Assembly: GCA_963701855.1 (NCBI GenBank) | Contig: CAVPBK010000006.1 | Location: forward strand, 768,001-832,000 | Source: Nitrospirota bacterium | GTDB taxonomy: Bacteria > Nitrospirota > Nitrospiria > Nitrospirales > Nitrospiraceae | Direction: 5' to 3' | Length of the DNA stretch: 64,000 bases | Shown here: positions 794-17,046 of the stretch, in pieces | Layout of the letters: each line of letters begins with the position of its first letter | Position numbering within the stretch: position 1 is the stretch's first letter | Translations under genes and position numbers: made by a program | Notes under the pieces: model-generated | Seen by the model: only the letters and a program-made list of their open reading frames with translations | Told to the model about the DNA's origin: nothing | Databases searched by the model: none

Positions 794-816
794 AAATCTA
801 CGGCCCATTCATTCAC

Positions 817-1223
817 TCGATCAGGGGGACTGGACAGGGCGCGCGACTGTTAACGGGTTCCCCCGCCAACTTTCCAAAGAGAGGAGGGTAGCGATGGATG
901 ACCTGACTCCACCTGGCCACACAGGCCCGCCGATTCGAGGGCGGGTTTCTGATCGGTCGTGCTAGCCGGTTCTCCACTGGCTGTGTCGTAACGACAGCAA
1001 AGACCAATAGGTTACTAGCCGATTTTCATCTTGGAGAACTCGACGCTGGCACGAGGAACATAAGCGCCTGGGATGATTTTATTTTCTCCCGATCAGCAGC
1101 CCAATGCTTTAGTTGTCGCGCGGGCCTCAGTTTTATTAGCTGGGCCGAGACAATCACATAGCTGACCCGGCGTCCTAAGCGCCACGAACGGGCGACCTCC
1201 CACCTCAGTGCAGGGTCGCCCGT
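817..1223 (+). ncRNA. Candidate large structured non-coding RNA, family unknown
   Basis: Many nested helices: 817-824/949-956, 923-931/940-948, 957-966/1045-1054, 968-976/1032-1040, 1093-1097/1161-1165, 1188-1197/1214-1223. G-U pairs favour the + strand. No long ORF. Confidence 0.5.
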
Positions 1224-1229
1224 GCCGTT

Positions 1230-1515
1230 CTAACAGGCTGTTGAAAAAGTCGTTCTTCTCACCCGCCCAACCCAGGCGGATATTTCACCCACCCACCCTG
1301 AGTCTGCCAAGACAGCCTCTTTGCCCAGGGACGCACCTTTTCTCATGCAGCGTTCTCACATCGTTCAGATCCTCCAGGTACCCCAGAGGGTAAGCTCTCG
1401 GCCCTTCACTCGCTGCGGCCTTATTGAACAGCCTGCGGGTTCAGCTGAGACCTTCCGTGAGTTCACCCAATCCTGGATTCTTCTAGTCCACAGTAACTCT
1501 TCAGCATCCTGCTAG
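1230..1515. repeat. MITE/REP-like element, family A (CAGGCTGTTGAAAAAGTC...TTGAACAGCCTG, with a further end TCAGCATCCTGCTAG)
   Basis: Terminal inverted repeats. Internal sequence (AGATCCTC...GTAC.CCAGAGGGTA...CTCGCTGCGGCCTT) is shared with the copy at 28812-28942. Confidence 0.7.
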
Positions 1516-16959: not shown

Positions 16960-17046
16960 GCCGAAGTGGCGAAACTGGCAGACGCACTAGATTCAGGGTC
17001 TAGCGCCCGCAAGGGTGTGCGGGTTCAAATCCCGCCTTCGGCACCA
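16960..17046 (+). tRNA. tRNA-Leu (anticodon CAG), long variable arm, encoded CCA
   Basis: GCCGAAG/CTTCGGC acceptor stem, CTAGA-TTCAGGG-TCTAG anticodon arm, GGTTCAAATCC T-arm. Confidence 0.97.

Follow-up and report, generated by a model that had tools for sequence, protein, structure and literature searches.

Short open reading frames (ORFs) rich in proline codons are described in Salmonella, where mgtL and mgtP lie in the leaders of mgtA and mgtCBR and are sensitive to EF-P and to proline; ribosome speed on their proline codons is proposed to select among alternative downstream structures (PMC5299641, PMC6460261, PMC12856214). Here we describe an RNA of about 425 nucleotides (nt) that likewise holds a very short proline-codon ORF (mini-ORF) in a structured RNA. 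It lies at about 801-1226, on the + strand, of a 64,000-nt stretch of a Nitrospiraceae genome, C6:768001-832000 of a 4.3-Mb assembly in 15 contigs; we call this whole stretch the window. Each of mgtL and mgtP stands ahead of its target gene. The window copy, by contrast, closes with a terminator of its own and has no gene downstream, and it differs further in its length, its nested long-range helices, its [T/S]PP[G/D] motif and the lack of any sequence similarity. TnaC and MifM are ribosome arrest peptides. SecM is another (PMC12856214). By analogy, the RNA described here would share with such peptides a short conserved motif in an otherwise free sequence that would pause the ribosome and remodel the RNA downstream. 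However, such peptides control the gene next to them and depend on a longer stretch of specific sequence, whereas only about five residues are conserved here and the arrest is putative.

Other comparable systems are free-standing. The dual-function small RNAs SgrS/SgrT, RNAIII/delta-haemolysin and SR1/SR1P are independent units that combine a structured regulatory RNA with the mRNA of a small peptide. The family described here resembles them as an independent unit: across its members the -35 and -10 boxes are conserved, and the terminator covaries and is followed by U-rich tails. By contrast, the dual-function RNAs pair with defined targets, and their peptides, 26 to about 45 residues long, have their own functions. 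Transfer-messenger RNA (tmRNA) is also a structured RNA of roughly 350-400 nt with a short reading frame inside; the window RNA differs in having a Shine-Dalgarno (SD) sequence and an AUG, and it does not match the tmRNA model. OLE, GOLLD, HEARO, ROOL and raiA are large structured bacterial RNAs of unknown function held in Rfam. Like the window RNA they are hundreds of nt long, multi-helix, covarying, lineage-restricted and found in environmental RNA, but the window RNA matches none of 4227 Rfam models, and to our knowledge none of the five has a conserved SD-led mini-ORF. In soils, sediments, drinking water and wastewater, Nitrospira are the main nitrite oxidisers and, as comammox, also oxidise ammonia completely; we know of almost nothing on their regulation at the RNA level. 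A literature search, with most subscription journals outside its coverage, returned nothing that describes this RNA, a leader ORF of amoC or any small RNA of Nitrospira.

Results

Evidence for an independent transcription unit

We have very little doubt that a conserved, structured and independently transcribed RNA gene exists at this locus. Its homologues form four groups: group A, the window type; group B, a second stand-alone paralogue, sampled as 20 full-length copies from other members of the genus; group C, linked to amoC; and group D, short degenerate copies. Alignment identity starts abruptly at CCATTGACA (765) and stops at about 1230, right past the last hairpin, and the flanks are unalignable. 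The conserved block begins with a -35 box, TTGACA (765-770, + strand), followed after 17 nt by TAAGAG (788-793). All 19 group-A orthologues retain TTGAC, as do 19 of the 20 group-B copies (the extract of the twentieth starts within the box), and it occurs within the first 80 nt in 24 of 28 copies from other genera. At identical spacing the paralogues carry TAAGGA or TAATGA (group B) and TATACG or TATAAT (group C), and copies in two sister families carry TAGCAT. Because these -10-like hexamers vary at a constant spacing, TAAGAG behaves as a -10 box. Judged by its sequence, the promoter would be of the sigma-70 type (TTGACA, 17 nt, TAAGAG), which predicts a transcript start near 800 and a 5' end reading CGGCCCA (801-807).

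The conserved block ends in a predicted intrinsic terminator (1188-1232, + strand), in which ACGGGCGACC (1188-1197) pairs with GGGUCGCCCGU (1213-1223) and is followed by GCCGUUCUA. In an alignment of 60 copies that includes other genera (A3), this stem (helix 18) is 97% paired, with changes on both sides in six of 11 pairs. Copies from other genera have wholly different terminator stem sequences and U-rich tails such as GUGUUUAUUUUU and CUGCUGUUUUU. A consensus scanner applied to 400-1600 called no promoter and no + strand terminator, since the window copy does not satisfy its rules for the -10 box (T at position 6) and the U-tract. These signals support about 801-1226 (+) as an independent transcription unit with a promoter and terminator of its own. 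The unit sits in a 1.08-kb gap between an aquaporin-like gene (1-438, - strand), divergent to it, and an amino-acid permease gene (1521-2888, - strand), convergent to it. Two claims of the original prediction are thereby upheld, namely that the RNA has its own promoter and that it is no leader for the next gene.

Metatranscriptome contigs from four runs in four studies cover parts of 796-1205, and several are near-identical to the window, such as those over 877-987 and 1032-1133 (one difference each) and 904-976 (none). Their summed word depths range from tens to thousands, with the depth over 944-980 also gathering paralogues. No contig lies over 500-684 in the four runs, and in three of them cover starts no earlier than 796, although uncovered parts are no evidence either way. 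In sixteen further RNA runs, which were given no weight, 12-19% of the sampled words occurred. Around the promoter, AATGGGCG (780-787), in the spacer, is near-complementary to CGGCCCAUU (801-809), at the predicted 5' end. This inverted repeat straddles the -10 box, is conserved in group A and could be an operator.

A covarying fold

The minimum free energy (MFE) of 817-1223 on the + strand is -170.4 kcal/mol, against -144.4 +/- 6.3 kcal/mol for dinucleotide shuffles (z = -4.15; none of 100 shuffles was as good). The z-score is -4.13 for 801-1226 (+) and -3.0 for the minus strand of 817-1223. We obtained RNAalifold consensus structures for 39 same-genus copies (A2) and for the 60 copies of A3, using slid partners and 500 shuffles as controls for pairing. 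In A2, 92.6% of cells were paired (41-47% slid) and 29 of 91 pairs had changed on both sides (10-17 slid); none of the 500 shuffles reached any measure. A3 gave 88.4% paired cells (42-47% slid), two-sided changes in 62 of 101 pairs (34-45 slid) and a covariation score of 0.244 (0.08-0.10 slid); none of 500 shuffles came up to these figures. G-U pairs are frequent on the + strand, which fits a + strand RNA as originally proposed: A3 pair 169:431 is GU in 42 of 60 copies and 502:508 is UG in 55 of 60.

The RNA is modelled as one large domain that encloses a long rod of nested long-range helices and a small hairpin domain at the 5' side. The terminal closing helix pairs CGGCCCA at the predicted 5' end with UGGGCCG (1141-1147, + strand), about 20 nt before the 3' module, and this is the best helix, at the same position, in 28 of 60 copies. 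Its compensated variants include GCGGCCCU/AGGGCCGC and CGGCCCG/CGGGCCG, with CUGGUCC/GGAUCAG in group B2. The shuffle control does not discriminate for this helix (mean best helix 6.7 nt observed, 5.8 nt shuffled), and the case for it is its constant position and its compensated variants. The 5' domain hairpin (824-864) pairs GGGGG (824-828) with CCCCC (860-864) and, inside, GACAG (833-837) with CUGUU (847-851), with two-sided changes in five of five and four of five pairs (A3 helices 1 and 2). As the domain is missing from six short group-B copies, it is dispensable. Next to it, an anti-SD sequence, CUUUCC (870-875), pairs with the SD sequence GGAGGG (883-888). This helix is 99% paired in A2 (helix 1), with UA at pair 82:93 in 19 copies and CG there in 18, and 89% paired in A3 (helix 3).

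The helices that stand out most clearly span long distances. GGCCCGCCGAU (924-934), which coincides with codons 11-14 of the mini-ORF, pairs with GUCGCGCGGGCC (1115-1126) in A3 helix 6 (93.8% paired; six of 11 pairs changed on both sides), while its 924-931 part can instead form a local hairpin with GGGCGGG (939-945; 95% paired; two of six pairs changed on both sides). The segment GGCCCGCC (924-931, codons 11-13) thus has two kept and mutually exclusive partners, GGGCGGG and the distant GCGCGGGCC. CUGAUCGG (949-956) is the 5' strand of a second long-range helix, with CCGAUCAG (1089-1096). Here three adjacent pairs (A2 pairs 163:315, 164:314 and 167:311) show compensated changes on both sides when group A is set against group B (CG 20/GC 18, GC 19/AU 18, AU 19/GC 18). 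The rod proper (957-1054) joins 957-976, which holds the near-invariant GCUAGCCGGUUCUCCA, to 1032-1054 and ends in an apical hairpin (980-998). Two-sided changes affect seven of nine, six of nine and four of five pairs of this region (A3 helices 11, 12 and 14), and the rod is also present in the single-sequence MFE fold. Towards the 3' end, the hairpin GGCGUCCUAAGCGCC (1169-1183, A3 helix 17) is 100% paired and nearly invariant in sequence in all 60 copies, and has recognisable variants in the sister families. Near-invariant segments that are unpaired or semi-paired (GCUAGCCGGUUCUCCA and a CCUAA loop) are candidate sites for pairing with a target.

Much of the originally predicted architecture survives in the consensus of 60 homologues, including the hairpin 824-864, the rod 957-976/1032-1054, the apical hairpin 980-998, the hairpin 1169-1183 and the terminal hairpin 1188-1223. 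The prediction also stands in that the RNA folds better than shuffles and has homologues with covariation above slid controls. Two predicted domains do not survive. The closure of a first domain by 817-824/949-956 is possible in the window, but the partner of 949-956 in the family is 1089-1096. The separate third domain (1093-1165) consists mostly of 3' strands of long-range helices, which lie at 1089-1126 and include the partner of 924-934. The repeated TAAGCGCC is indeed present twice (1061-1068 and 1176-1183). Of the two alternative pairings with GGCGT proposed for it, the hairpin 1169-1183 is kept in the family and the pairing of the first copy is not kept in subgroup B1, which has AAGCGGC at that place.

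A conserved mini-ORF

The 23-codon mini-ORF (894-965, + strand) encodes MDDLTPPGHTGPPIRGRVSDRSC and ends in a stop codon. It lies behind the strong SD sequence GGAGGG, 5 nt upstream of the ATG at 894, and has a conserved core at codons 3-8 (D-L-T-P-P-G). Its frame is intact in 60 of 60 A3 copies, and no insertion or deletion falls between the ATG and the end of codon 14. All 60 have T or S at codon 5, PP at codons 6-7 and G or D at codon 8, and 58 have D or E at codon 3; peptide conservation is confined to M-x-[D/E]-x-[T/S]-P-P-[G/D]. The proline codons vary at the third position only (CCA, CCG or CCC at codon 6; CCU, CCG or CCA at codon 7). ORF length is 14 codons in 20 A3 copies, 16 in two, 23 in 37 and 34 in one, and in two further copies, truncated where their loci end and outside A3, the ORF stops right after PPD, at eight residues. 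A second 'GPP' is not kept as peptide (GPS, GLP, GPQ and GPR occur) but is kept as RNA, in the helix strand 924-931. All eight matches fetched from the sister families keep the core, which reads MDDLTPPD, MEDLTPPD, MNDLTPPD or MDDATPPG, and little else aligns.

We read this pattern as selection on translation of the [T/S]PP[G/D] motif, and on these sequence grounds the mini-ORF is probably translated. Because an SD-led mini-ORF is intact in every A3 copy, the RNA is probably not purely non-coding. The original description of a gene-free stretch therefore needs correcting at 894-965, and of its 'free-standing ncRNA' (non-coding RNA) the free-standing, structured character and the lack of an Rfam family hold, while the non-coding label does not sit with a mini-ORF whose core persists into the sister families. 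The peptide has no Pfam or NCBIfam match. It is charged and proline-rich with no hydrophobic stretch, and no antisense feature was seen, which sets it apart from a type I toxin.

Distribution across the order

BLAST of 700-1300 found a block of 77-97% identity in 18 of 24 genomes of the same genus. The permease is convergent downstream in 15 of 19 orthologous loci while the upstream genes vary; the shared permease neighbour indicates that the window locus was inherited vertically. With a 125-nt core (876-1000) as a single DNA query, BLAST gave matches in 129 of 201 genomes of Nitrospiraceae, spread over 18 of 39 genera, and a covariance model of 112 positions of the RNA core matched 55 of 62 Nitrospiraceae genomes. 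The same model gave weak matches (31-41 bits) in 7 of 62 and 8 of 21 genomes of the two sister families. All eight of these that were fetched were judged real, since each has TTGACA, an SD sequence, a mini-ORF and a terminator; six of the eight also have a recognisable 3' hairpin, and the flanking genes differ from those of the window. A phylum-wide draw of 117 genomes from 22 further families (f5-f26) gave no covariance match. As far as searched, the family is limited to the order of Nitrospira. Full-length copies, about 400 nt long, are also present in other genera, complete genomes among them, and are often paired in tandem at a spacing of about 500 nt. In such pairs (loci L079, L082, L088, L089, L090, L091, L096 and L097), one copy is A-like (5' CGGCCCA) and the other B-like (MEELTPPD/MEDLSPPD).

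The genome of the window has three copies of the RNA family only. As the locus is also syntenic, a mobile or repeat element was rejected. The numerous short BLAST matches come from a separate dispersed repeat, starting at about 1229, and in part from the 3' module. That repeat begins right after the terminator (window 1229-1460), has 22 further short matches in the same genome and many in same-genus genomes, and shows very high contig depth in one metatranscriptome.

The original prediction recognised no known family (tmRNA, RNase P and others), and the search of Rfam agrees. At gathering thresholds, Rfam 15 matched only a tRNA (16960-17043) in the whole window. At E <= 10 over 400-1600, the 4227 models gave only four chance-level matches to eukaryotic families (19.6 bits at most), and five homologous loci gave no match. 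On these results a known RNA family was rejected. RNase P RNA, tmRNA (C6:1060370-1060719, 189.8 bits) and a weak 6S-like match all lie elsewhere in the genome. A sub-threshold match to the tmRNA model (26.4 bits) lies at C6:766166-766462, about 1.5 kb before the window.

Paralogues at amoC and CBS genes

The window RNA is one member of a multi-copy family, other members of which serve as leader and terminator around amoC or precede a CBS-domain gene. A profile built from the orthologues matches contig C15 of the same genome, adjoining two amoC genes. Subgroup B1 (eight of the 20 group-B copies) lies about 115 nt upstream of a same-strand CBS-pair gene (Pfam CBS, 4e-31). In group C, the 5' part of group B stands directly upstream of amoC in at least 19 of 56 amoC-bearing genomes (85 searched). 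When a B1 copy from an amoC-free genome is compared with C15, B1 positions 14-377 and 377-457 are contiguous, while their C15 counterparts are 873 nt apart with amoC between them. This single gap holding amoC indicates that amoC was inserted into a copy of the RNA gene. From the arrangement of these signals, the inserted amoC would use the promoter, mini-ORF leader and terminator of the RNA unit. The embedded amoC also has an SD sequence of its own (C15:55000-64000, L028 4640-6010, compared with L040 1494-1990).

The genome of the window has four amoC copies, one of them followed by the start of an amoA-like ORF; the 3' module follows three of the four and the 5' module precedes one. The third copy (C6:111500-116500, L029 1947-3311, - strand) has the 3' hairpin and terminator and a B1-type downstream flank running into a CBS-pair gene, and upstream a different small ORF, encoding MGKIFRRDVQDQPTKVVLKYMKGG and a stop, overlaps the amoC ribosome-binding site. 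A degenerate copy (L028 3407-3521; L036 about 2020-2130) has a promoter, an SD sequence and an ORF encoding MEDLGSPDQNVSAN and a stop, in which Pro-Pro is lost. It lies about 360 nt upstream of a CBS-pair gene, between two amoC copies. Among 18 genomes of the genus with a group-A orthologue, 11 lack amoC at E <= 1e-30, including six that are 95-99% complete. The RNA element is therefore independent of ammonia oxidation.

Discussion

We give an even chance to the overall interpretation that the RNA is a free-standing translation sensor of about 425 nt, of the leader-peptide type, with its fold coupled to pausing on the mini-ORF. Pro-Pro followed by Gly or Asp is among the ribosome-pausing motifs that need EF-P. 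Ribosomes would translate the mini-ORF and pause at Pro-Pro-Gly/Asp. With the second proline codon (912-914) in the P site, GGCCCGCC would start 6 nt past the A-site codon, at about the point where mRNA enters the ribosome, and a paused or transiting ribosome would set the partner of GGCCCGCC and with it the fold of the distal ~300 nt. That the ribosome would decide the distal fold follows from the two conserved, mutually exclusive partners of this segment. Given its own terminator and the convergent next gene, the window copy would act through its RNA as such or through the process of being translated; in the amoC- and CBS-upstream paralogues the module is seen in the leader position. What the analysis shows is conservation, the promoter and terminator architecture, covarying base pairs, an intact ORF with its pattern of conservation, presence in RNA libraries and the use of paralogues in cis; translation, pausing, the switch and any target in trans are inferred, and the specific pause-gated switch we regard as plausible but less likely than not.

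Several observations weigh against a translation sensor. The window copy has no downstream gene for leader control; a regulated gene downstream, as in a leader attenuator, is found only in the amoC and CBS paralogues. The ORF may be mostly silent, because a covarying helix with the anti-SD sequesters the SD sequence and a small hairpin holds the AUG. CCACC, within the two proline codons, can pair with GGUGG/GGGUA just after the SD sequence (A3 helix 4, 79% paired), so that part of the invariance of the proline codons could be an RNA constraint. The local hairpin at 924-945 has little covariation and could be a by-product of two similar 3' strands. As most two-sided changes separate paralogue groups, the covariation comprises few independent events. 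The tail of the window copy, GCCGUUCUA, is weakly U-rich and was not called by the scanner, and metatranscriptome contigs cannot give strand, ends or level, with DNA possible in RNA libraries.

A pure non-coding RNA is an unlikely but serious alternative, in which the ORF is never translated, GGAGG (resembling an SD sequence), the AUG and CCACC serve structure or binding, and the fold acts, for example by protein binding at GGCGUCCUAAGCGCC or GCUAGCCGGUUCUCCA. Covarying structure does span nearly the whole molecule, the compensated anti-SD helix and the CCACC-GGUGG pairing fit a structural role, and the peptide is short (14-34 residues in A3, eight in two further copies), variable at its C-terminus and without a Pfam or NCBIfam match. 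Against this stand the frame, unbroken from the ATG to codon 14 in every A3 copy, with proline codons that change only at their third position, and the base pair at the third position of codon 6, broken without compensation in 10 of 60 copies. The [T/S]PP[G/D] core is moreover retained in sister families where the RNA has otherwise diverged (31-41 bits). The opposite extreme, a small-protein gene whose product is the 14-23-residue peptide and whose long 3' part merely stabilises the mRNA, would account for the strong SD sequence, the ATG, the conserved N-terminal core and the terminator. We consider it improbable, as only about five residues are conserved, the ORF can stop after eight or 14 codons, and the ~260 nt past the ORF hold the best covariation and near-invariant non-coding segments for which a stabiliser has no need.

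That the window copy is an ordinary cis-acting leader or attenuator of a neighbouring gene is more improbable still. Paralogues do sit upstream of amoC and of the CBS-pair gene, but here the next gene is convergent, as in most orthologous loci (15 of 19), the unit ends in its own terminator, and the flanking genes differ in the sister families. We give hardly any credence to chance retention, whether of an amoC transcription-unit remnant or of a mobile or repeat element. The 3' module behind three of the four amoC copies of this genome and the 5' module ahead of one would fit such a remnant, but 11 of the 18 orthologue-bearing genomes of the genus lack amoC, the family extends across Nitrospiraceae and the sister families, and the pairwise alignment shows amoC as the inserted piece.

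A bolder version of the translation sensor is speculative and, in our view, quite unlikely. The RNA would be an abundant, trans-acting sensor of translation status across the order, in which EF-P-dependent pausing on an eight-codon [T/S]PP[G/D] mini-ORF flips a domain of about 300 nt and exposes the invariant hairpin or GCUAGCCGGUUCUCCA to a protein or mRNA. The module would later have been co-opted as an expression platform for amoC in comammox Nitrospira.

Conclusions

A covarying RNA of about 425 nt that occurs in most searched Nitrospiraceae genomes and is seen in environmental RNA libraries is a candidate core regulator of these bacteria and is open to study in cultured strains. It is unusual for a free-standing unit to carry a conserved polyproline mini-ORF, and this offers a directly testable case of translation-coupled RNA switching outside the classical leader. 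The insertion of amoC into a paralogue would show a horizontally acquired gene of ammonia oxidation wired into native expression signals, and may provide a handle on the differential control of amoC copies.

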